Positions 42,349-58,793 of a DNA stretch of 58,794 nt are shown here, piece after piece (position 1 is the stretch's first letter; every line of letters begins with the position of its first letter). The translations under genes were made by a program, and so were the position numbers. The notes below the pieces were generated by a model. It saw only the letters and a list, made by a program, of their open reading frames with translations, was not told where the DNA came from and ran no database searches. This DNA comes from Clostridia bacterium (GTDB lineage Bacteria > Bacillota > Clostridia > Oscillospirales > CAG-272), in contig JAFXAC010000053.1 of NCBI GenBank assembly GCA_017522125.1, forward strand, positions 1 through 58,794, given 5' to 3'.

Positions 42349-43014
42349 TTACCAAATGAATGGCAGTAGTCTGTATTTTACCTTTTTCGTGTATTCCGCA
42401 TAGCCCTCAAGTCCTTCCGAAAGCACCTTTTCCTCGTTAAGTATGCGAATAACGGTTGCGGGAACGTAAAGCGAAAACGGGATAAGTCCCCAAAGCGAGC
42501 CGAGTATCAGAGGAAGCGGCAAAAACATAAAAAGCGTTGCAAGATACATCGGGTGGCGCACAATGCCGTAAAGTCCCGTGCTTACGACCTTTTGTCCCTC
42601 TTGCACCTCGACGGTGCGCGAGAGGTAGGCGTTTTCGCGCATTACCTCGGCATACGCCGCGTATCCGATCAGAAACAGCACGGACGCGGTAACGGTAAGC
42701 CACACGGGCACGCGCGACCACGAAAAGCGAAAATCAAGCGCGGAAAGGATAAAGCCCACGGGGAATATCAAGCCCGACAGCGCGATAACGCCGCGCTGTG
42801 CCTTTTCTTTTTCCTTGTTGTTAAGTCTTTTTTTCAAAAGCTCGGGCGCTTTGATGAAAAGCACTATCCCCATAACGCACATCGGGATAAACAAAAGCGC
42901 AAGAAAGAGCCACGCGCCGCCGTAAAGGAGCGTTCCCGCGGGCAAGAACAAAAGCACGCCCACAAGGATGAGACCGAGAATAAATTTCACAAGTGCGTCA
43001 AATAACAGCTTCAT
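42349..43014 (-). CDS. ICMT/phospholipid methyltransferase family membrane protein
   Basis: GLYGIVRHPMYL motif and a polytopic N-terminus. Confidence 0.65.
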   Translation of the reverse strand: MKLLFDALVKFILGLILVGVLLFLPAGTLLYGGAWLFLALLFIPMCVMGIVLFIKAPELLKKRLNNKEKEKAQRGVIALSGLIFPVGFILSALDFRFSWSRVPVWLTVTASVLFLIGYAAYAEVMRENAYLSRTVEVQEGQKVVSTGLYGIVRHPMYLATLFMFLPLPLILGSLWGLIPFSLYVPATVIRILNEEKVLSEGLEGYAEYTKKVKYRLLPFIW

Positions 43015-43102
43015 CGAGCGCTCCTTTCGAGTTTTATATACATATTATAATAGTTGCGTGCGGTTTTTTCAATAGGCTACGGCGAAATGTTGTCAAAAAA
43101 TT

Positions 43103-43129
43103 AAAAAGCAGGGGTTTCCCTGCTTTTTA
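43103..43129. terminator. Bidirectional terminator at the left border of the AT-rich island
   Basis: AGCAGGG-gttt-CCCTGCT (43107-43124) flanked by A5 and T5. Confidence 0.7.
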
Positions 43130-43160
43130 TATAGCGTAACAAATCGAAAAATCGAACTAT

Positions 43161-44486
43161 TCAATTCCCATTTGCTTCCCACAAGTTTTTCTGCACCCAG
43201 CAGACGTTGCATTTATTTCGCGGGCAGGTACAGCACTGCCATATCTCCGATTTGCCGCCAAGCGTGGCAAGCGGAGTTTTTATGATCGGCGCAAGTATGC
43301 CGAGGGCGGCTTCGTCCAATAAAGCATTCAACTCGCCCTCTGTCATCAGCTGCCAATCGTAAACGTCCTTTTGGTTGGTATTAAGGCGTGTGTAGTAGCA
43401 GCAAGGAAATTGACCGTCCTTGTGATAGACGCGAACGTTAAAATAATATTCGTCCGAGTACTGAGATTTTTGCGCCTCGAACTCCAAGCAAAAATCCCCC
43501 TCCAGACCCATCGTCCATTTAGCTCCCTTTTTCTTAAATCCAAGCTGCTTTAGCCTTTCGGCGATCTTTTGCAAAAACTGCTTTTGCCTCTCTTTTTTTA
43601 AAGCCAAGATATCGTCCCTTGATTTATATAAATACGTATCATACACGTTTTTTATTTGATCGGCAACGGCGTTTTTGTCCGATTCATTTTTTATAACGGA
43701 GTAAAACCGCAATTTTATATTGAAATCGTCCTCGCCGTAGAGTCTAAAATGCTCTCCTTCCGCGACAGTTGTAAAGCCATACGTTACGCCAATATGCTCA
43801 CCGTAGTCCTTCAAATTCACCGCAAAGGCAACCTTGTCAAGCGTAAAGCGGTAAAAGCTGAACTGCCTAAAGCTCCACTCGGCTTCTTTGAAATTTGATT
43901 TAAGGAGCTCCTCTCTCAAAGAAAGCATCGTATCCGTATAACGCAAAAATTCTGCTTCTTTGTCGGTGAAGTCCTTGAAAAATTGCTCGATTCTTAAAAG
44001 CTCCCCTTCTTCAAGAAGCTGATAGGTCATAAGGTCTGTCAGCTCGATAGCAAAGCCGTCGACTTTTTCGGACTCTCTCGCAAAAGCGAGCTTATTATCA
44101 AAGGCTCTTTTGATAACGGCACACTCGGGAGTCCGATCGATTACTTTATAGTATCCACTGCCACTACGCTTTACCCAATCGCCAGCCTTTACCGTTGCCA
44201 TTTCCTTTTCATTCCGACACAGTGCCATCAGCCTGTCAAAAACTCGTCTGTCGGCATCCGTCAAGCAAGCGGGCTCAAGATGGAGCATTGCGTGATAGGC
44301 ATCGTGCAATCTATCGTTAAATAAATATTCAAGCCCCTCGGATAAGCGGAGCTTTTTATCGTAATCATTGCCGAAAATCGTGTCTATATCTTCGCCAAAA
44401 GCATTTTTATAATTCTTCCACCTTGCCTGAAATTCGTCGCTAAAGAACCATCTCTCTTTTTGTGAGCTTGTCTGTGTCTTATCCAT
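43161..44486 (-). CDS. Hypothetical 441-aa protein (C-terminal part DUF4304-like)
   Basis: Long clean ORF in AT-rich DNA. C-terminal KKKGAKW...F.LEF...Q pattern and a terminal Cys cluster. The family call is tentative. Confidence 0.4.
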   Translation of the reverse strand: MDKTQTSSQKERWFFSDEFQARWKNYKNAFGEDIDTIFGNDYDKKLRLSEGLEYLFNDRLHDAYHAMLHLEPACLTDADRRVFDRLMALCRNEKEMATVKAGDWVKRSGSGYYKVIDRTPECAVIKRAFDNKLAFARESEKVDGFAIELTDLMTYQLLEEGELLRIEQFFKDFTDKEAEFLRYTDTMLSLREELLKSNFKEAEWSFRQFSFYRFTLDKVAFAVNLKDYGEHIGVTYGFTTVAEGEHFRLYGEDDFNIKLRFYSVIKNESDKNAVADQIKNVYDTYLYKSRDDILALKKERQKQFLQKIAERLKQLGFKKKGAKWTMGLEGDFCLEFEAQKSQYSDEYYFNVRVYHKDGQFPCCYYTRLNTNQKDVYDWQLMTEGELNALLDEAALGILAPIIKTPLATLGGKSEIWQCCTCPRNKCNVCWVQKNLWEANGN

Positions 44487-44540
44487 AAATCATGTGCCTT
44501 TCTTCTGTTGCAAAGCAAGCGTTTGTGTTGAAAGTGCTGC

Positions 44541-45221
44541 TCAAACGTAAATGATGACTTTATTTGTTTTTTTCTTGTGCAGATACAATTTTAGCGGCAA
44601 GCCCGATCTTGCGCTTAATGCCTTTTTCGGACACGCTTCAACGCACCTAAGACACCTTATGCACCTGCCGTTTGTTTTACCCGATTTTATCGCCCCCAAG
44701 GGACAGATCTCCGAGCAAAGCCCACAGGCGATGCATTTTTCGCTTTTCCGTATTTTAAGCCCCAGCCGCCCTCTCAGCCTCGGAAGGATATCAGCCAAGG
44801 GATTTTTATATAGCTTGGGAAGGCTTACGGGAGAAGGGCTTTGTATCTTCTCAACGAGGGGCTTCAATTTATCGAAATCGCAAAAAGCCCCGTCGTTATC
44901 TATATAGGCGTGCTTCGTGGGGATATACGCGCCCGCAACAACGTTTTTTTGATAGCCTTTTTGTATCTCATACAGCACGTTCCCACAGCACATTTTTCCG
45001 TAGGTGGCAACGACCGTCAGATTGTCAACGGATACGCTCTTCAAAAAATCCTTTACGGCATCGGGAATATTTTGGCAGTGGACGGGAAACACGAGAACGA
45101 GATTTTGATAATCCGTATGTGCCGCCTCAATGCTTAAAAGAGGATAGTCCAAGCACTCGGCAAGGTACGCCGCGACCGCCCTGCTCTGCCCCGTATTTGA
45201 ATAAAAAACGGTTGCGTTCAT
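44541..45221 (-). CDS. EFR1-type flavodoxin-like plus 2x[4Fe-4S] ferredoxin
   Basis: N-terminal flavodoxin-like FYSNTGQSR. C-terminal CIACGLCSEICP and CIRCLRCVEACP. ATGA overlap with the upstream PP-loop gene. Confidence 0.65.
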   Translation of the reverse strand: MNATVFYSNTGQSRAVAAYLAECLDYPLLSIEAAHTDYQNLVLVFPVHCQNIPDAVKDFLKSVSVDNLTVVATYGKMCCGNVLYEIQKGYQKNVVAGAYIPTKHAYIDNDGAFCDFDKLKPLVEKIQSPSPVSLPKLYKNPLADILPRLRGRLGLKIRKSEKCIACGLCSEICPLGAIKSGKTNGRCIRCLRCVEACPKKALSARSGLPLKLYLHKKKTNKVIIYV

Positions 45222-46606
45222 TGTTCCAAGTACTCCCGCATTATCGCGCATTCGGGTATTTCCTCAAGCGAAAAGCCGAGCGAGCTCTTAAGCTCCGATA
45301 GCGCTTCCTCGCGGGAGAGATTGTTACTTCGCCCCGCTATCGCGATCTCAAGTGCGCTGAACGGTATCATCGTGCTTTTCATCTCGTAAAATCTTACGAA
45401 TTGCGAATGCTCCTTGCATTTTTCGATTTTACAGCTCGTATGTAATCCCTTATCGGCTTCCTCGGGGGCAACCCAGCCGCATTCACGAATGATGATATCC
45501 TTTATCTTTCTCCACTCGTAAGCACCGCCGCTTATTTCATCAAAATCGACCTGTACGAACGCGGGAATATTGCCCGTGCGCGAGGACGCGCGTATCGCTC
45601 TTTTTAACGGAGTCAGAATATTGGGGGCTTCTCTTATGGCTTCACAGACGTTTTGCACGAGGGGATTTCTGTATCCCGCTAAATTTTTCAATCTGCTGTC
45701 GCCGTATGCAAGCTGCTTCATCGTGGCGAGGGTGTGGAATTGACCCTTTTTCAGCGGTGGGCGAAGCGTTAGCACCCTGCCGACGTTCAAAAGGAAATTA
45801 AGCACCTTGTTTTGCGCAAACGTATAAGCAAATTTGGGCGCCATGTGATTGAAATACAAGCCGAGCATCTGTGCGGGCTCATTTCCCGCAACGAAATACG
45901 GGACCTTGTTTGCAACAAGCTCCGAGTAAAACAAAACGTACGCGAGGGAAGGACAGGCGCAGGTGTTTCCGTTTAAGGAATAGAGCTTTTTATATATCCT
46001 TTTCAGATCGTCGCTTGAAACTCTGCGGCTGATAAACTCCACCGAATCAAGCGTCGCCTTGGCGTTTTCCACGCTCCTTCTCGCGCAGTCGGACATATAG
46101 GGGATCTCCCAAGTGAGCGCCAGAACGCGGAGCTTTAATTTTTTTGAGAGATAGTACAGTAAATACGTGGAATCCTTGCCGCCCGTGTAAAACACGGCAA
46201 CGTCAAAGCGCGATCTTTTTGACCTTGGGAATGTATTTACTATCGGAACGATGCTTTTCAGCTCTTTCGTCTTGTCCGCGGATTGGCAAATGGGGCATTT
46301 CCCCTCTGCGTCGAACTCTATACCCGGGATCATAAAATCGTTTGCAACGCAGGTCTTGCAAAATCTTGCCTCGTCAAAGCCCTTGGGAATCGCTATTTTA
46401 TCCTCACTTTTAACGATCTGCACGCCTATGAGATTTTTTAGTGCATAGGCTTCCTTCGGCGTCAGCTCGCACGGCAGCCTTTCGACGATCGCTCTTTGCT
46501 TTTTGGTAAGCCGAACGGTATTTTTAAACGTGTCGGGCTGATTTCGCAAGCCGTAATATCTCAAAATACTGCCTTCAAGCCTCCATCTGCTTTGGATATC
46601 GTACAT
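45218..46606 (-). CDS. PP-loop ATP pyrophosphatase, N-acetyl-sugar amidotransferase (WbuX)-like
   Basis: Zn-ribbon CKTC...FDAEGKCPIC followed by PP-loop FYTGGKDST. Confidence 0.55.
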   Translation of the reverse strand: MYDIQSRWRLEGSILRYYGLRNQPDTFKNTVRLTKKQRAIVERLPCELTPKEAYALKNLIGVQIVKSEDKIAIPKGFDEARFCKTCVANDFMIPGIEFDAEGKCPICQSADKTKELKSIVPIVNTFPRSKRSRFDVAVFYTGGKDSTYLLYYLSKKLKLRVLALTWEIPYMSDCARRSVENAKATLDSVEFISRRVSSDDLKRIYKKLYSLNGNTCACPSLAYVLFYSELVANKVPYFVAGNEPAQMLGLYFNHMAPKFAYTFAQNKVLNFLLNVGRVLTLRPPLKKGQFHTLATMKQLAYGDSRLKNLAGYRNPLVQNVCEAIREAPNILTPLKRAIRASSRTGNIPAFVQVDFDEISGGAYEWRKIKDIIIRECGWVAPEEADKGLHTSCKIEKCKEHSQFVRFYEMKSTMIPFSALEIAIAGRSNNLSREEALSELKSSLGFSLEEIPECAIMREYLEQ

Positions 46607-46672
46607 AGCAGTTCCTTTCTTCGACAGTTATACTAAACTGCGTAAAATGGGGTTTCGATTAGTCGAAGGGAT

Positions 46673-46951
46673 CTATTTCCCATTTTTAAAGTATCCTTTA
46701 CCCCCAAACGTATCGTACCACAAGGTGAATATCGCGCCGCAGCTTTTGCATTTGATCCTATACCATAGTCCATCCTGCGGCCACTGCTTTACGGTTTTTT
46801 CGGGAACGTTCCCGCCGACGTATTCATAATTTCCATCGGATAATAAGCGCTTGAGCTTTTGTAAAATATCAAAAAATTCGTCGGTGCTTTTGATATGCCT
46901 TACAGCTTCAAGCTTTTGGCATTCATTGCACAGCCTTTTGAAAAAAATCAC
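46673..46951 (-). CDS. 92-aa hypothetical protein with a CxxC...CxxC zinc-ribbon pattern
   Basis: GTG start preceded by GGAGAA. CNEC and CKSC pairs. Confidence 0.5.
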   Translation of the reverse strand: MIFFKRLCNECQKLEAVRHIKSTDEFFDILQKLKRLLSDGNYEYVGGNVPEKTVKQWPQDGLWYRIKCKSCGAIFTLWYDTFGGKGYFKNGK

Positions 46952-47050
46952 AAGTTTTCTCCTTCAGATATAAATGACGCTCTCCTCTCGGCGCAAGAGC
47001 GTAAAAGGTTTAAAAATCGGTTAAAAACGGGTTGGGAAAGCCAAAAGTCA

Positions 47051-47416
47051 TCAAATACCCAAGAAAAAGAAACCATTATATTCGCGTATTGCTTTTTCGA
47101 GCCACTCAGCAAAAACTTCAAATCCTTTGGGTCTGTCATTAACAATTTGTTCCCTAATTGCTAACGTCTGCTCTTTTGTGTAGTAATTGACGCCGTAAGG
47201 GTCAAGCTCTTGCGTTTCCTTGGAAAGAATCGGATTTCGTAAATAATCGCCGTAATTTTCAAAGAAAGCCTTGCCGTTATCAACGCGAACAAGCAAAGAA
47301 TCCTTTTCCTTGAACGAGTATCCCTTTTTTAATATCTTTTTTATATCCCACTCTTTTTTGCAATACTGAAATTCAAAATATGCACTTCCTTGCTTTTCGG
47401 AACACGGTATAAACAT
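47051..47416 (-). CDS. 121-aa hypothetical protein
   Basis: ATG preceded by AGGAGG. No recognisable motif. Confidence 0.5.
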   Translation of the reverse strand: MFIPCSEKQGSAYFEFQYCKKEWDIKKILKKGYSFKEKDSLLVRVDNGKAFFENYGDYLRNPILSKETQELDPYGVNYYTKEQTLAIREQIVNDRPKGFEVFAEWLEKAIREYNGFFFLGI

Positions 47417-47512
47417 AATTACCTCCTACTGATATAAAAGACGCTCCCCTCTCGGCGCAAGTGCGTAAACGGTGTTTCTTGCACCAAAATAAGCGGCGAA
47501 GTACCAAAGCCC

Positions 47513-48274
47513 TCAATGTGCATCATAAGAGAGATTGCACTCCTTGCAAACATCTCGTTCGTGATCCTCGGAAAAGCTTACTCGCTCCATTATCCTTCCG
47601 CATTTAGGGCAGATATGTATCTGCTGATCGCCCACGTTCTCCGCTTTTATGCTTTTTCCGTAATCACATTCCAAATGGTAGTACACAGGATAGCCAAGCT
47701 TTTTGCTCATATATTCCGCAATTTCGATTTCCTGCTTGTTTAATGCAGAATCAAGCTTTACACGCTGATTTCCCGTATAGCGATCGCAAAGGCAGTTCAT
47801 CCAAAGCATATCCATTGATGAGTAATTCTCTTGCCAATTTTGAACCAAGCAATAATCCTCTTGGCTCTCTGCGGGAAAAGGAAGCTCGTAATACGCAATG
47901 GGCTTTCCGCAATCACAGCAAGTAAATACGCTATCTTGGTCGCGGGAATACGTTTGCATTTCAACTGCGCTTCTCTTTTTGCAACCACAATACTGCCCGC
48001 TTTCAACGTTTTCACCCATGGGGGTAAGGATGCAGTCGTATATTTCCTTAATTCTTTTTCGATCCCGTTTTACGTATACCCCATCATATTTTTCATCAAA
48101 GGAATCGGATTTTGGCAACGTTACGTACATTGCGTAATTCTCGTTTTTCGTTAGCGTATAGCTCTTCAAGATCTGCCCGTTTCGCTCAAGCGAGCAGAGA
48201 AAAGACCAGATCAGGTCTTCTGCGTCCTCTTGTGCTATGCTTTGCTTGGCAAACAACTCTATTTTACAAAACAT
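47513..48274 (-). CDS. 253-aa multi-zinc-ribbon protein (DUF2310-like)
   Basis: CCDCG, CPKCG and CKEC ribbons plus an N-terminal NGQIL segment. The family call is tentative. Confidence 0.45.
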   Translation of the reverse strand: MFCKIELFAKQSIAQEDAEDLIWSFLCSLERNGQILKSYTLTKNENYAMYVTLPKSDSFDEKYDGVYVKRDRKRIKEIYDCILTPMGENVESGQYCGCKKRSAVEMQTYSRDQDSVFTCCDCGKPIAYYELPFPAESQEDYCLVQNWQENYSSMDMLWMNCLCDRYTGNQRVKLDSALNKQEIEIAEYMSKKLGYPVYYHLECDYGKSIKAENVGDQQIHICPKCGRIMERVSFSEDHERDVCKECNLSYDAH

Positions 48275-48329
48275 ACTTCCTTCTCCTTTCGGGGCGTTAT
48301 ACTAAACTGATGTAAAATAAACTTTTTAC

Positions 48330-48680
48330 TTATGCGTTTTCCTTCGCGGTGGTGATGGAGGAGATGAGTCTGCGCCTGATCGAACCGCATTTGTTTTTTA
48401 AATCTTTATAGTTCGATTCGGTTATTTTCCCTTTTCTGAAAATCAGTTCAAGCCAATATTCAGTTTCCGAGCACTCCTTTAAAGAGATTTCAAGCTTATT
48501 TATAAAATCTGCCTTACTCTGTGCATATTTTGCTTCGTGAATATTAGCACCTATAGAGGATGAAGAACGGACAATTTGATTGGCGTAAATGGAGCAACCT
48601 TTGATTTCGTCGCATAGGTCTGATATTTGGATAGCAAATTCTATAGCGTCCTCTCGTAGTTGGTTCTTATTGTCTATCAT
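48330..48680 (-). CDS. Four-helix-bundle protein (23S rRNA intervening-sequence protein/Avd family), copy 1
   Basis: 116 aa with family-typical QIVRSSSSIGANI.EA and E..YWLEL motifs. Confidence 0.85.
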   Translation of the reverse strand: MIDNKNQLREDAIEFAIQISDLCDEIKGCSIYANQIVRSSSSIGANIHEAKYAQSKADFINKLEISLKECSETEYWLELIFRKGKITESNYKDLKNKCGSIRRRLISSITTAKENA

Positions 48681-48702
48681 TTTTTACTAATCCTTTATTC
48701 TG

Positions 48703-49015
48703 TCGATATGTTGCTTCGCAACTCGATATCAATACCTTCGGTATGTCGATATGTTGCTTCGCAACTCGATATGTTTTCGCTACGCTCAAACTCGATATAT
48801 GCTCACTTTGTTCGCATTCGATATGTTGCGCTTTGCGCAACGAGAGGCGCTTTGCGCCTTGGCGCTTTTCCCCAATCTCGTTTTGCCGCAAGGCAAAACA
48901 TATCGAGTCCCCGCAGGGGATATATCGAGCCGCCGCAGGCGGCATATCGACCGACGCGTCAGCGGCGCATATCGACATCGAGTCGTCGTGTCAGCGACAC
49001 GACAGACTCGACGTG
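48703..49015. repeat. Heptamer/hairpin array, copy 1 (6x TCGATAT, centre, 4x ATATCGA)
   Basis: TCGATAT at 48703, 48723, 48746, 48766, 48792 and 48818. ATATCGA at 48900, 48922, 48944 and 48969. Intervening palindromes include GTTGC-ttc-GCAAC and GTTTTGCC-gcaa-GGCAAAAC. Confidence 0.9.
48959..49015 (-). pseudogene. Orphan duplicate of the last 18 codons plus stop of rlmD (HVESVVSLTRRLDVDMRR*)
   Basis: 57/57 nt identical to 50335-50391. No upstream coding continuation: homology stops at 49015/49016. Confidence 0.85.
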
Positions 49016-49080
49016 GGGCAAGAGTACAAAAGGTATATTTTCATGCCAAAAACGGGGGTTGTAAAGCCAAAAGGTATATT

Positions 49081-49746
49081 TTAATTGTACTCTTCTACAT
49101 CACCAAGTAATTTAATAATTCCATTGTCCACAAGTATAGCACCTTTCATAATAGCAGTTGCATATACCGTTTTCTTGCGTTCTTCAAGAACCTTTTGAAT
49201 TGCTGCCTTTTGAGCGTCTTTCCCCTCATAATGCACTTCCAAATAAAAGTCATTCAAATACGGTAATCCCTCATAATATTTGAACTCTGGATAATCATCG
49301 TCGGGGGAAAGATGATATTCAGCAAGTTGAATAACGGCTCCCGCACTATAGCCCATAACAATCCCCTTATGCTTCATCAAAACATCTTTTAGATCAAATT
49401 CCTTGATGCGATCCATCATCCTATCTGGCAAGCCGCCGAGAAAATAGAGGATATCCGCATTTTCAATCTTTTCCTTTGCAGATTCCTTTGTATCCGTAAA
49501 ATAGTTGATAAACGAAACATTCTCCTCGGAGATTCCGTATGCAGTAAACCCACTAACAATACCTTCGTAAAACCTACCATTGCTTTTGCTATATAAGCAA
49601 TTCCAATCCGCAAGAGATTTAGCTTTACTGTCACGAAAAGAGAACGCAATTACCACTACTCTGTGAGTAGGTTGCATATATTTTTTTAATTCATCATAGA
49701 GCCATGGAGCATCTATATCGTAACCCTCAAGTAAAATATTAATCAT
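49081..49746 (-). CDS. Peptidase S51 (dipeptidase E-like, class I glutamine amidotransferase-like) protein
   Basis: ILYFLGG, GYSAGA nucleophile-elbow-like motif and a downstream His. ATGA overlap with four-helix-bundle copy 2. Confidence 0.6.
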   Translation of the reverse strand: MINILLEGYDIDAPWLYDELKKYMQPTHRVVVIAFSFRDSKAKSLADWNCLYSKSNGRFYEGIVSGFTAYGISEENVSFINYFTDTKESAKEKIENADILYFLGGLPDRMMDRIKEFDLKDVLMKHKGIVMGYSAGAVIQLAEYHLSPDDDYPEFKYYEGLPYLNDFYLEVHYEGKDAQKAAIQKVLEERKKTVYATAIMKGAILVDNGIIKLLGDVEEYN

Positions 49747-50099
49747 TGATTTTGATTCTCCTTTGCGGTGGTGATGGAAGCGATAAGTCTGCGCCTAATT
49801 GAGCCGCATTTGTTTCTTAGCTCTTTGTACGTGACCTTGCTCATTTTTCCTTTTCTGAAAATCAATTCAAGCCAATATTCAGTTTCCGAGCACTCCTTTA
49901 AAGAGATTTCAAGCTTATTTATAAAATCTGCCTTGCTCTGTGCATATTTTGCTTCGTGAATGTTTGCTCCGATAGATGATGAAGAACGGACAATTTGATT
50001 GTCGTAAACGGAGCAACCTTTGATTTCGTCACATAGGTCTGATATTTGAATTGCAAATTCAATCGCGTCCTCTCGGAGTTGGTTCTTATTGTCTATCAT
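49743..50099 (-). CDS. Four-helix-bundle protein (23S rRNA IVS protein/Avd family), copy 2
   Basis: 118 aa, about 90% identical to copy 1 with many synonymous differences. Confidence 0.85.
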   Translation of the reverse strand: MIDNKNQLREDAIEFAIQISDLCDEIKGCSVYDNQIVRSSSSIGANIHEAKYAQSKADFINKLEISLKECSETEYWLELIFRKGKMSKVTYKELRNKCGSIRRRLIASITTAKENQNQ

Positions 50100-50121
50100 T
50101 TTCTACTAATCCTTTATTTTG

Positions 50122-50391
50122 TCGATATGTTGCTTCGCAACTCGATATGTTTTCGCTGCGCTCAAACTCGATATATGCTCACTTTGTTCGCATTCGATAT
50201 GTTGCGCTTTGCGCAACGAGAGGCGCTTTGCGCCTTGGCGCTTTTCCCAAATCTCGTTTTGCCGCAAGGCAAAACATATCGAGTCCCCGCAGGGGATATA
50301 TCGAGCCGCCGCAGGCGGCATATCGAGCGACGCGTCAGCGGCGCATATCGACATCGAGTCGTCGTGTCAGCGACACGACAGACTCGACGTG
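50122..50391. repeat. Heptamer/hairpin array, copy 2 (4x TCGATAT, centre, 4x ATATCGA), overlapping the rlmD 3' end
   Basis: TCGATAT at 50122, 50142, 50168 and 50194. ATATCGA at 50276, 50298, 50320 and 50345. The rlmD stop TGA (50335-50337) lies in a hairpin loop. Confidence 0.9.
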
Positions 50392-51726
50392 TCCCGTTCT
50401 CGGAAACAGATCAACGGGAAGGACGGTGCCGATGCTCCAGCCGAGTTGGTAAAGGTGAGCAAGATCGCGTGCGAGCGTTGCGGGGTTGCAGGAGATATAC
50501 ACTATCTTCTTTACGCCTGCCCTATCGAGCGTATCAAGCAGCTCGGCGGCACAGCCCTTGCGCGGCGGGTCAAGCACGACCACGTCGGGAAGCTCACCCG
50601 CAACGCCGAGAAGCTCGGACGCGCCAAGCGCCGAGTCGGCGCACAAAAAGCGCGCGTTCTCAATGCCCGCGCGTGCGGCGTTAGCCACGGCGCACTCAAC
50701 CGCCTCGGGCACTATCTCAACGCCCGTAAGCCGTCCTACGCGCCCCGCCATAGAAAGTCCTACGCTTCCGATGCCGCAATAAAGGTCAAGAAGATGCTCG
50801 TCGCCGCGAAGTCCCGCCATATCAGCGGCGGTGCGGCAAAGAAGCTCGGCGGCATCGTGATTTACCTGATAAAACGCCGCGGGCGCGACGTCAAGCTCAA
50901 CGCCGCAAAAAACGTCCCTTATCGACGCCTTACCCGCCACGGTGATATATTCATTGCCAAGTATTACGTTGGAGTTTTTCGTATTTACGTTAAGTACCAC
51001 GCCCACGATGCGCGAAAACGTGCGCATCAGCGCCTCGGCAAGCTCGTCGGCGTGCGGCAAGCTCCTGCCCGCTATGACGATGCAAACGAGTATCTCGCCG
51101 TCCTCGCCCGCGCCCGTGCGCAGATAGAGGTGGCGCAAAAGTCCCTTGCCGCTTTCCTCGTCGTATACGGAAATCCCCTTTTTATATGCGAAATCGCAAA
51201 CGAATTTCGCTATCTTGCCGAATATCTCGGGCTGTAAGGGGCAGGATTCGTCGCCCGTAACGCGATGTGTTCCCGAGGCGTAAAAGCCCGCGCGAATGCC
51301 GCCCTCGTATGCCGCAAAGCGATATTGCGCCTTATTGCGATAGCCCCAGACCTCACCCGTGTGCGCGGTTTCGAGCACCTCAACGTGCGAAAGCCCCGCC
51401 TTATCAAGTTCGGAGCGCACGTTCTGCCGTTTCAGCTCAAGCTCGTGAGAGTATTTTATAAATCTGTACGCACAGCCGCCACAGCTTGCGGGGGCGGTGC
51501 ATCTGTCACTGCTCTCGCGCAACGGCGAGGGGGTGACGACCTTCATAAGCCTTCCGACGAGATAACCCTTGGTTATCTTTATTATCTTCACCTCTGCCCT
51601 CTCGCCGCTGACTGCGCCGTGGGTGAACACGACCTTGCCGTCCTCCGTCCTGCCTACTCCGTAGCCAAGATTGCTGACGGCGGTAACGTCGATTGTAACG
51701 ACGTCGTTTTTCTTTATATCAGACAT
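50335..51726 (-). CDS. rlmD: 23S rRNA (uracil-C5)-methyltransferase, RlmD/RumA family
   Basis: TRAM domain, Fe-S Cys cluster (CTAPASCGGC), SAM fold (DLYCGIG), nucleophile region YISCNP and terminal FPRTGHVE motif. Start taken at MSDIKK (51726). Confidence 0.85.
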   Translation of the reverse strand: MSDIKKNDVVTIDVTAVSNLGYGVGRTEDGKVVFTHGAVSGERAEVKIIKITKGYLVGRLMKVVTPSPLRESSDRCTAPASCGGCAYRFIKYSHELELKRQNVRSELDKAGLSHVEVLETAHTGEVWGYRNKAQYRFAAYEGGIRAGFYASGTHRVTGDESCPLQPEIFGKIAKFVCDFAYKKGISVYDEESGKGLLRHLYLRTGAGEDGEILVCIVIAGRSLPHADELAEALMRTFSRIVGVVLNVNTKNSNVILGNEYITVAGKASIRDVFCGVELDVAPAAFYQVNHDAAELLCRTAADMAGLRGDEHLLDLYCGIGSVGLSMAGRVGRLTGVEIVPEAVECAVANAARAGIENARFLCADSALGASELLGVAGELPDVVVLDPPRKGCAAELLDTLDRAGVKKIVYISCNPATLARDLAHLYQLGWSIGTVLPVDLFPRTGHVESVVSLTRRLDVDMRR

Positions 51727-57968: not shown

Positions 57969-58793
57969 TTATATCAGCAAACGCATATTTTCCATCTTTT
58001 TCCTATGCTCTGCTCCGCTTTCGATTATATAGATACGCGTTGTATCTATGCTGCTGTGGCCGAGAATATCAGACAGCCTTGATATATCCTTATCAATGGA
58101 ATAGAACATTTTTGCAAAAAGGTGGCGAAGGTTGTGGGGGAACACCTTTTCAGCACTCACACGTGCCGCCGCGCAAAGAGAGCGCATCTCGCGCCAAATA
58201 TTGCTCCTGTCGAGTGGCTTGCCGCCGCGGGTAATAAATATAGCCCCTGTTGCGATCCCTCTTTTTTTAGCGTAAGCCGCAAGCCTTTTGCGCAGCTCCT
58301 TGACGATCAGCACCCTTCGCAGCTTTCCCTTGCAATTCACGATCGCCTCACCGCGCGCGAGAGATTCGACCGTGATAAACTCAAGCTCGCTGACTCGTAT
58401 ACCCGTAGCGCAAACGGTTTGAAGCAGGAGCGCCAAGCGTTCGTTTTTCCTTCGCTCCGCCTCTCGCACGAGTCGTAAATATTCCTCGCGGCAAAGCTCC
58501 CTTTCCTCTGAGCAATACACCATTCTTTGCACTCTCAACCGCTTTTGGCAAAGCTCTTCCCTGCCGCAAAATTTAAAAAACGAGTTTAGTGACGCTATTG
58601 TGCAGTTTACGCTTTGCGGCGAATATTTTTTTGTCAGCTCGTCCTTGTAGGCTCTGGCTCGCTCTGCGCTTGCCTCACCGTCCCCGATGAAATCAAGAAA
58701 ACGCCCCACGTCGCTCAGATATTTTCTTACGGTTGCCGCGCTTTTTTCAGTTCTGAATAAATAATCTTTGTATTCTTTTATATTTTTCAGCAT
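57969..58793 (-). CDS. Tyrosine site-specific recombinase (XerC/D-like phage-integrase family)
   Basis: N-terminal SAM-like core-binding domain. Catalytic residues in ATGIRVSEL (Arg), HNLRH, LGHSSIDTTRIY (His..Tyr). The ATG lies 1 nt from the window edge, so the RBS cannot be seen. Confidence 0.8.
   Translation of the reverse strand: MLKNIKEYKDYLFRTEKSAATVRKYLSDVGRFLDFIGDGEASAERARAYKDELTKKYSPQSVNCTIASLNSFFKFCGREELCQKRLRVQRMVYCSEERELCREEYLRLVREAERRKNERLALLLQTVCATGIRVSELEFITVESLARGEAIVNCKGKLRRVLIVKELRKRLAAYAKKRGIATGAIFITRGGKPLDRSNIWREMRSLCAAARVSAEKVFPHNLRHLFAKMFYSIDKDISRLSDILGHSSIDTTRIYIIESGAEHRKKMENMRLLI

Follow-up and report, generated by a model that had tools for sequence, protein, structure and literature searches.

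Probable serial insertion of gene cassettes at a site-specific hot spot in the rlmD 3' end of a Clostridia bacterium

The SCCmec (staphylococcal cassette chromosome mec) and pseudo-SCC islands of staphylococci arise by serial accretion, mediated by serine recombinases, at the 3' end of rlmH (orfX), a gene for a 23S rRNA methyltransferase; their units, which measure 3-60 kb and some of which lack a recombinase of their own, are separated by direct repeats that copy the end of the gene. The gene rumA/rlmD is targeted by the serine integrases of streptococcal ICEs (integrative and conjugative elements) and IMEs (integrative and mobilizable elements) and of C. difficile CTn5 (PMC4701971). The attachment (att) site of these elements is located within the integrase gene, and integration exchanges the 3' parts of rumA and of the integrase gene (PMC4701971); tandem accretion at such sites is known (PMC5357655). 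As the latter paper sets out, cis-mobilizable elements (CIMEs) derive from ICEs or IMEs, are bounded by att sites, lack integration genes and occupy the 3' ends of conserved genes in tandem (Pavlovic 2004, Bellanger 2011, cited in PMC5357655). The recombinase of a related element is presumed to mobilise them, either in cis or in trans (PMC5357655). Here we analyse the 58,794-nt contig JAFXAC010000053.1 of a Clostridia bacterium (Oscillospirales; the whole contig is called the window below), in which rlmD is followed by two tandem modules that each contain a copy of the rlmD tail, a structured leader and a gene for a four-helix-bundle (4HB) protein. From a comparison across ~140 related loci (numbered with the prefix L) we conclude that the window probably shows a hot spot of site-specific insertion, in the final codons of rlmD, that has been occupied twice in succession. 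The unit that lies next to rlmD differs from the elements described at rumA/rlmD in that it measures 1.4 kb and carries no recombinase, conjugation or mobilisation genes.

Positions 48330-49015 of the window are a repeat of positions 49743-50391. A first-pass annotation, made from the sequence of the window alone, had described a sharp homology boundary inside rlmD and an orphan copy of the rlmD 3' end, and an alignment of the two units with MAFFT bore out both claims: the edge is found at 49015/49016 versus 50391/50392, at the CAC of the His-Val-Glu (HVE) codons CAC-GTC-GAG, and the 57-nt tails at 48959-49015 and 50335-50391 are 100% identical, reading HVESVVSLTRRLDVDMRR before the stop codon. 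The other edge of the homology coincides with the stop codons of the two 4HB genes (48330 and 49743). A repeat of target sequence is therefore present at both ends of the element, consisting of the 57-nt tail and in effect of ~290 nt, as the arrays behind the tails (arrays 1 and 2, the leaders of the 4HB genes) differ by just 3 mismatches and one 43-nt indel, which corresponds to two extra units of a hairpin plus ATATCGA in copy 1. The distal and proximal genes (4HB-1 and 4HB-2) show 87% DNA identity and 91% protein identity, with most of the differences in the last ~100 nt. The motif TCGATAT occurs 39 times in the window where 9 occurrences are expected, and 18 of the 39 are located inside the two arrays. 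Other elements of the earlier description also stood up: an S51 peptidase-like gene is coupled to 4HB-2 by an ATGA overlap; the codons for the last RlmD residues, LDVDMRR, are supplied by the array, namely by the 3' arm of its first hairpin and the first TCGATAT unit; and scans of the open reading frames (ORFs) of the unit, the surrounding island and the window confirmed that no recombinase is encoded inside the unit.

The history of the two copies can be read from a sister species (L023), of which the RlmD protein is 96% identical to that of the window. Both flanks of the L023 locus are ~90% identical at the nucleotide level, aligning to window positions 54056-49756 and 43074-39966, which sets the limits of the variable island behind rlmD at 50391 and ~43075; the host part of rlmD belongs to this syntenic sequence (90% nucleotide identity). 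L023 contains a single module, with a leader that has a six-unit right half like leader 1, and with a 4HB gene that is closer to 4HB-1 (90.6% DNA identity) than to 4HB-2 (87.4%) and that encodes the 4HB-1 type of C-terminus (...ISSITTAKENA). Since L023 holds only the orthologue of the distal copy, the proximal 1376 bp (49016-50391) would be a later insertion, copy 1 being the probable inherited resident and the proximal unit the extra one. The proximal cassette comprises a new rlmD tail, a structured leader, 4HB-2, the S51 gene and a junction site of 66 nt (J). The first-pass annotation had been right about the existence of an insertion unit, yet it had not recognised J, which is its true distal end.

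The proximal unit is of foreign origin. In contig L003, a stretch of 1034 nt matches window positions 50100-49067 with 100% identity, encompassing 4HB-2, the S51 gene and the first repeat of J, and the rest of the 10 kb of L003 has no match to the window. The identity stops within J, beyond which L003 continues with an rlmD-like tail that differs from that of the window (NVESVVCLKRQIQQ before the stop codon, where Asn replaces His), another type of array and a NERD gene. The pair of 4HB and S51 genes is also found in L017, L019 and L044, where RlmD is only 37-52% identical to that of the window, and the S51 protein is 97-100% identical in L003, L019, L017, L044 and L144, that is, in other species or contexts. 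In the case of L144 the S51 protein is 99% identical and the 4HB protein 67%, which implies that the part consisting of S51 and J also moves with a different 4HB gene.

Modules of this kind are widespread behind rlmD. A scan of one genome per GTDB species yielded 454 relatives of the 4HB protein, and in ~55 of the best 80 loci, which were examined, the module is located 200-300 nt behind an rlmD-family gene. In these loci the 4HB protein is 80-96% identical to that of the window although RlmD, with the exception of the sister species, is only 29-53% identical. The cross-species DNA homology to the window module extends from the HVE codons up to the stop codon of the 4HB gene, and such limits are what a module leaves that moves horizontally and always enters at one point. 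The end ...LDVDMRR seems not to be native to RlmD but to travel with the module. Orphan rlmD tails are equally common: more than 60 were found downstream of rlmD in genomes and metagenomes, most of them after J, and tails of the form HVE(S/T)VVCLTR... occur in the loci of at least 20 species, with a maximum of four per locus (L075). The counting of modules in related loci gave one in L023, two in the window and further tails elsewhere. Together with the 100% identical foreign copy, these counts support repeated insertion, and the comparison as a whole agrees with the proposal that an element enters the rlmD 3' end at HVE, replaces the C-terminus and displaces the old tail.

A sequence of the J family immediately precedes the orphan tail in at least 20 genome loci. 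Members of the family have two direct repeats of ~14 nt (AAATATACCTTTTG or GAGACYTTTTGG) about 41 nt apart, followed by ~8 nt and (A/C)CC before CAYGTNGAR. With the proximal part of J as search pattern, 44 metagenome contigs were recovered, in 41 of which an in-frame RlmD-like tail comes next; one contig has at least five J-tail junctions behind rlmD, some only 256-1065 nt apart. In L037 and L044 a cassette without a 4HB gene lies next to rlmD, and the tail, leader and 4HB gene are displaced behind a J, an order which implies that new units enter at the rlmD-proximal position. The cargo of the cassettes is very diverse: 291 non-nested downstream ORFs fell into 231 clusters, and a Pfam scan of 150 downstream ORFs gave 137 families, of which the 25 commonest were listed, so that a rare recombinase among the cargo is still possible. 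The position of the crossover follows from the breakpoints. Seven pairs of junctions with the same J and a different downstream sequence diverge between -4 and +5 relative to the C of CAY, and of the pairs with the same module and a different upstream sequence, three that agree up to the junction start to match between -4 and +2. This clustering locates the exchange at or next to CAY/GT, where the boundary had been placed from the window alone.

Other arrangements were seen among these arrays. In a low-GC species another repeated junction separates the cassettes behind rlmD and the 4HB gene, i.e. a terminator hairpin (AATCCAGCGTT...AACGCTGGATT) with a TATAAT promoter (L007 7130-7280 and 7785-7900; L011 3745-3890 and 4410-4540), and a cassette encoding 167 aa is present in L007 and absent from L008. 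In L028 (645-3234), the cassettes located upstream of a displaced tail, leader and 4HB gene include an MvaI/BcnI-type restriction endonuclease, a C5 cytosine methyltransferase and an HNH protein, which indicates that the arrays can carry defence genes.

Taken together, these observations suggest the following course of events. A resident module (tail 1, leader 1 and 4HB-1) would have been in place behind rlmD before the split from the sister species. Later, the 1376-bp recombinase-less cassette would have recombined at the CAY/GT of the HVE codons, presumably as a small circle with a J-tail junction that joins the end of J, ...ACCTTTTGTACTCTTGCCC (49016), to the start of tail 2, CACGTCGAG (50391); upon recombination with the rlmD end, the tail of the circle would complete rlmD and J would abut the old tail. 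Newer units would hence enter beside rlmD and older ones be pushed outward. As each incoming unit restores an rlmD-like tail (...VESVVCL...), a usable target is recreated, which permits serial accretion; the rlmD junction would stay target-like and the internal J-tail junctions donor-like, so that insertion and excision could be repeated. The units are promoterless and co-oriented with rlmD and are therefore probably expressed via read-through from rlmD. After the insertion, gene conversion may have homogenised both tails and leaders. The unit in the window fits the description of a recombinase-less, trans-mobilised cassette in an accretion.

With respect to the enzyme, the HVE site is the known rumA/rlmD target of large serine recombinases, and recombinases of this type are found in related loci. 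L030 encodes a large serine recombinase of 597 aa (Resolvase, Recombinase and Zn_ribbon_recom domains) that ends in ...SLDNDTQ followed by VESVVCLTRRLDVDMRR and the stop codon, after which come a leader and a 4HB gene. The recombinase found in L014 and L016 belongs to the same family; it has ...NKPSS followed by VETIVCLRKQ as its end, and precedes the 4HB protein that is found after rlmD in L007. As in the rumA/rlmD elements, where the same region of the same gene is the target, the C-terminal end is replaced and the old 3' part ends up at the other end, and in L030 and L014 a recombinase of like type is fused in frame to the tail that is duplicated in the window. In L030, L014 and L016 the recombinase gene is located at the distal end and holds the att site in its own 3' end, an arrangement that is absent from the window unit, of which the distal end is the non-coding J and not the 3' end of an integrase gene. 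The L030 family is very abundant, and in most of its 120 closest relatives a conserved ...KFKLPIIEEDMxxSLDNDxQ/H is followed by RlmD-like tails; among these tails there is a long C-terminal extension that we take to be the typical native extension of Firmicute RlmD. About 25 of the 120 relatives (P0132-P0160) have ...LDxDxQ/H-VE followed by unrelated domains instead, among them GNAT, NUDIX, sigma-70, AraC, FtsX and TrkH, and these continuations suggest frequent secondary insertion sites with only a VE-type core in common. The enzyme that moves the window cassette most likely acts in trans, the best candidate being a large serine recombinase of the family that targets rumA/rlmD.

The only recombinase in the window itself is a generic Xer-like protein of the tyrosine type (274 aa, 57969-58793, minus strand), 6 kb upstream of rlmD, which scores below the NCBIfam cut-offs of XerC, XerD, XerA and the integron integrase and of which the gene is found at the same position in the same-species contigs L097, L099 and L100. 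The Xer-like protein and the L030 recombinase were used as phmmer queries against the ORFs of the first 96 loci, the latter also against those of the window. Matches were limited to L030, L014 and L016 for the serine recombinase and to the window's own gene for the Xer-like protein, and no relative of the Xer-like protein was found by phmmer within 4 kb of a 4HB gene in 80 related loci.

A number of observations weigh against site-specific insertion by such an enzyme. An ORF with Resolvase or Recombinase domains was found neither in the unit, nor in the 7.3-kb island, nor in the 58-kb window. When J was compared by eye with the junctions of L030 and L014, on the side of the recombinase gene, no convincing resemblance was seen: as a recombinase-side half-site it has only TTTGRA, ~13 nt from the crossover, in common with them, and we rejected this assignment as unconvincing. 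At 66 nt and with two direct repeats, J is more like the arm sites of tyrosine recombinases. A circular form, an empty site or a one-copy variant was not found within the same species, where an exact look-up of the RlmD and 4HB-2 proteins returned only the two-copy arrangement or contigs that end early. Among mobile elements, the exact two-repeat pattern of J was not found in viral contigs, a 161-nt query of J, orphan tail and first array unit gave nothing in phage genomes, and the whole two-module region matched plasmids only through remote 4HB genes. The last point on this side is the composition of the cassette itself, to which homologous recombination has contributed and for which it could even have been the route of insertion.

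Copy 2 has a mosaic structure. The tail, the leader and the coding sequence up to ~270 nt are like copy 1 (the leaders being 99% identical), and the remainder, i.e. the last ~100 nt of the coding sequence, S51 and J, resembles the cassettes of L017 and L019. Leaders 1 and 2 moreover have hairpins h5 and h6 in common that are unlike those of L023 and L017, which makes gene conversion between the copies likely; the two arrays would have been homogenised in this way, with homologous recombination as a second force that appears to have shaped the locus. One could go further and suppose, as the first-pass annotation did by way of alternative, that a circle or donor fragment of ~1.4 kb with homology to the leader and the 4HB gene recombined with the resident copy. 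The mosaic argues for this, the leader of copy 2 being 96-100% like that of copy 1 and its 3' coding part, S51 and J being like those of L017 and L019, as does the difference of h5 and h6 in both leaders from the orthologous leader of L023. We nevertheless regard homologous insertion as unlikely. It leaves unexplained why the repeat ends exactly at CAC-GTC-GAG, why J-tail junctions occur in dozens of species with unrelated cassettes on either side and why the breakpoints cluster at CAY/GT, and the mosaic can be explained equally well by gene conversion after the insertion.

The possibility that the module was duplicated in place, by unequal crossing-over or slippage, with later divergence of the copies and separate gain of S51, fares worse and has little probability in our view. 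It would account for direct copies in tandem that have 57 bases in common and leaders with 99% identity, but the difference between the genes is 13% and that between the non-coding leaders just 1%, 4HB-1 is orthologous to the only copy of the sister species, and the 3' end of 4HB-2, S51 and J match the cassettes of other species, with most of the cassette 100% identical in L003.

That the repeat is a collapsed or chimeric repeat of the metagenome assembly is very improbable. 4HB modules are multi-copy in these communities and many contigs break inside them, such as L099 and L100 at window position 49960; however, the copies have distinct sequences and distinct flanks, and the two-copy arrangement is identical in contigs from two further samples (L001 and L002), which are independent assemblies. 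This identity and the 13% difference between the gene copies argue against an artefact. In one of the broken contigs, L099 (9628-10689), the first 140 nt of 4HB-2 are fused to an unrelated GC-rich gene for a GDSL lipase at the point where L100 ends. We rejected this apparent variant with a lipase in place of the 4HB protein and took it as an assembly chimera, most likely formed in the conserved IGANIHEAKY region; contigs that break inside 4HB modules are unreliable. A diversity-generating retroelement (DGR), with an Avd-like 4HB protein and the tails as template and variable repeats, or a 23S rRNA intervening-sequence (IVS) element can be dismissed as next to impossible, in spite of the family membership of the 4HB protein (see below), for there is no reverse transcriptase among the ten ORFs scanned (42349-50099), the two tails are 100% identical without adenine-specific differences, and Rfam finds no rRNA in the window.

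The array between rlmD and the 4HB gene had been regarded as part of the integrating element. Although it supplies the end of rlmD, it is no debris of an integration but a conserved leader with a defined structure, which is found away from rlmD as well. Its plan, a hairpin P0 followed by four times TCGATAT plus hairpin, a centre and four times hairpin plus ATATCGA, is kept in 70 distinct arrays, and the ribosome binding site (RBS) and ATG mostly come 15-25 nt after the last unit. Hairpins h6 to h8 have at least 4 terminal base pairs in 98-100% of 31-51 distinct sequences, as against 22-35% of chimeric controls. RNAalifold, applied to 60 arrays, gave nested 7-bp helices (T1-A4, T2-A3, T3-A2 and T4-A1), which are predicted to form a stack of four four-way junctions, as well as hairpins that covary, with compensatory changes at 16 pairs in all, and the fold of the window leader has a minimum free energy z-score of -7.6. 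In 31 of 57 arrays, versus 0.4% in controls, the centre contains a complement to the 5' arm of h1, the first ladder hairpin. Tandem G.A pairs in h6 and h7 are possible only on the mRNA-sense strand; the counts of G.T versus A.C, 25 versus 20, are not decisive as to the strand.

Behind rlmD, the 5' arm of P0 is the coding sequence of VESVVCL and the 3' arm is its complement. The 38 distinct versions of P0 have a mean energy of -21 kcal/mol, compared to -11 for chimeras, and they show compensatory changes that include switches of the Ser codon from TCC to AGT matched in the other arm. Because of this pairing, it is the leader that determines the final codons of the window rlmD (TRRLDVDMRR). The same leader precedes more distant 4HB genes (72-78% identical), where it follows a TATAAT-type promoter instead of rlmD, so that the leader must be part of the gene module rather than an integration scar. 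The plan is also realised with other motifs: there are three more motif pairs, GTGAAGTT/AACTTCAC, GTGATAT/ATATCAC and ATGAATTG/CAATTCAT, in each of which the motif on the right is the left one in reverse complement, and the leader versions, at least four in number with motifs of 7-8 nt, also occur at L041 2981-3240, L052 3330-3600, L066 7850-7990 and L003 1085-1190. Rfam gave no meaningful family, either for the whole window at the gathering threshold or for 48200-50500 at an E-value threshold, there is no tRNA or tmRNA in the window, and no description of the ladder-like leader was found in Rfam or in the literature on the 4HB protein family. As a guess, the leader might couple the translation of the cassette gene to read-through from rlmD or insulate it from this, or it might bind the 4HB protein. 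A scan of viral contigs for three copies of TCGATAT returned 119 stretches, of which three are true ladders. These three, in contigs classified as viral in IMG/VR (L159 5140-5290, L171 3640-3930 and L258 6490-6780), include one with a 160-nt insertion in the centre, and their contigs have no tblastn match to the 4HB, RlmD, S51 or Xer-like proteins of the window or to the L030 recombinase.

The 4HB proteins belong to PF05635, a family that includes the Avd proteins of DGRs and the proteins encoded in rRNA IVSs. The two window genes match the corresponding Pfam model, 23S_rRNA_IVP, with E-values of 3e-22 and 4e-23 (79-82 bits versus a cut-off of 33.8), and 4HB-1, the copy that was scanned against NCBIfam, reaches 92 bits with TIGR02436, where the cut-off is 24. 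Their genes resemble those of rRNA IVSs in that they adjoin a heavily structured RNA. They differ from IVS and Avd genes in that they are neither inside an rRNA gene nor beside a reverse transcriptase and are preceded by the specific ladder-like leader.

The coordinates of the parts are collected in Table 1. The NCBIfam model of RlmD ends at residue 448 of the 463 residues of the window protein, 15 residues before the stop. In leader 2 the ladder is followed by the RBS and ATG of 4HB-2. The GC content of the island is 0.38-0.49, versus 0.55-0.57 on the rlmD side (50-54 kb) and ~0.53-0.54 in the flank at 40-43 kb. A third rlmD tail or J was looked for at the far end of the island (~43075) and is not present there. 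Within the island, two small ORFs (46673-46951 and 47051-47416, minus strand) are preceded by 51-nt segments (46959-47009 and 47423-47473) that are 88% identical and consist of a hairpin, ACGCTCT...AGAGCGT, and then an RBS, resembling another repeated cassette leader. The motif TTTTACAGCAGTTTAGTATAAC is found just before the RBS of several cassette ORFs, both in the window (46627-46640 and 48296-48309) and in another species (L075 355-380, 1525-1550 and 3005-3030), and may be a shared promoter or leader element.

Table 1. Parts of the rlmD locus in the 58,794-nt window
Feature	Position	Strand	Remarks
rlmD, host part (gene for the 23S rRNA U1939 methyltransferase), ending with the Gly codon before His-Val-Glu	50392-51726	-	NCBIfam TIGR00479 RlmD, 3e-106
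Complete rlmD frame	50335-51726	-	Includes the supplied tail
rlmD tail 2, probably element-supplied, HVESVVSLTRRLDVDMRR and stop codon	50335-50391	-	attL-type junction; crossover at or next to CAC/GTC (50389-50391 / 50386-50388)
Hairpin P0	50353-50388	-	Inside tail 2
Ladder leader 2 (array 2; zone ~50100-50334 between rlmD stop and 4HB-2)	50122-50351	-	4 x (TCGATAT + hairpin), centre, 4 x (hairpin + ATATCGA)
Four-helix-bundle gene 2 (4HB-2), 118 aa, PF05635/TIGR02436	49743-50099	-	Mosaic; PDB 2RLD, 6.5e-24
Cargo gene, S51 peptidase-like, 221 aa	49081-49746	-	Pfam PF03575 Peptidase_S51, 5.7e-11; overlaps 4HB-2 by ATGA
Junction site J, 66 nt, distal end of the putative inserted cassette	49016-49081	-	Overlaps the S51 stop codon by one base
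14-nt direct repeats of J, AAATATACCTTTTG	49027-49040 and 49068-49081	-	Then TACTCTTGCCC
Orphan rlmD tail 1, putative displaced former 3' end of rlmD	48959-49015	-	J and tail 1 form an attR/attP-like junction
Hairpin P0'	48977-49012	-	Inside orphan tail 1
Ladder leader 1 (array 1)	48703-48975	-	4 TCGATAT and 6 ATATCGA units; six-unit form as in L023
Four-helix-bundle gene 1 (4HB-1), 116 aa	48330-48680	-	Probable resident copy, orthologue of the single L023 copy
P0-to-ladder leader spans	50122-50388 and 48703-49012	-	Conserved ladder-like RNA
Remainder of low-GC variable island behind rlmD	43075-48329	-	DUF2310, two small ORFs, WbuX-like, EFR1 ferredoxin, DUF4304

The locus thus shares properties with several known systems and coincides with none of them. 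From the rumA/rlmD elements it is set apart, beyond the properties of the single unit, by the many stacked cassettes of sub-kb size up to 1.5 kb. Like SCC islands, it shows serial accretion, repeats of the gene end between units and units that lack a recombinase; it differs from them in the gene (rlmD instead of rlmH), in the recombinase family and the host group, and in the size of the window-type units (0.3-1.5 kb versus 3-60 kb), and no ccr-like gene was found near the units of the window. Like CIMEs, the window unit is bounded by att-type sites at the 3' end of a conserved gene, lacks recombination genes of its own and lies in tandem with another element. CIMEs, however, are decayed ICEs of several kb, whereas the window units resemble a specialised cassette system that has a conserved junction of its own and occurs in many species. 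The resemblance to integron arrays and to attC clusters without an integrase (CALINs) lies in the promoterless, co-oriented and mostly single-gene cassettes with diverse cargo, each of which ends in a conserved sequence that resembles a recombination site, and in the entry of new cassettes at the promoter-proximal position. Contrary to integrons, there is no IntI beside the array (the nearest tyrosine recombinase being the Xer-like protein, 6 kb away), J consists of direct repeats and a conserved spacer, without any apparent inverted repeats, and thereby differs from an attC hairpin and its R'', L'', L' and R' boxes, and the attachment site is inside a housekeeping gene that is restored by each cassette. 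The window unit therefore falls outside the definition of an integron, as it has neither intI nor attC, and outside that of an autonomous serine-recombinase element, as it has no recombinase.

While the integration of large conjugative elements into rumA/rlmD is known, what the comparison supports here is an integron-like or SCC-like accretion at a serine-recombinase hot spot. We know of no earlier description of an array in which very small single-gene cassettes, all lacking a recombinase, each restore the end of a housekeeping gene. We tentatively put forward a wider proposal, which we hold to be possible rather than probable, namely that the rlmD 3' end is a platform of integron-like gene capture without an integron integrase, where the HVE site would act as attI and the J-tail junction as attC. 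Cassettes of 0.3-1.5 kb would be moved in trans, possibly by a serine recombinase and repeatedly without the need for a directionality factor, and the ladder leader would represent a new class of RNA that couples the expression of the cassettes to read-through from rlmD.

If this is true, the abundant uncultured Clostridia of the ruminant gut would possess a second, independent route to integron-like arrays for gene capture. The J-tail junction would provide a simple signature for mining such arrays and their very diverse cargo, and together with the rlmD end it would constitute two defined sites on which serine recombinases can be tried, a class of enzymes directly relevant to genome engineering. 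Independently of this, the leader RNA is a well-supported candidate for a new family of structured RNAs, linked to the poorly understood 4HB proteins of the 23S rRNA IVS and Avd type.

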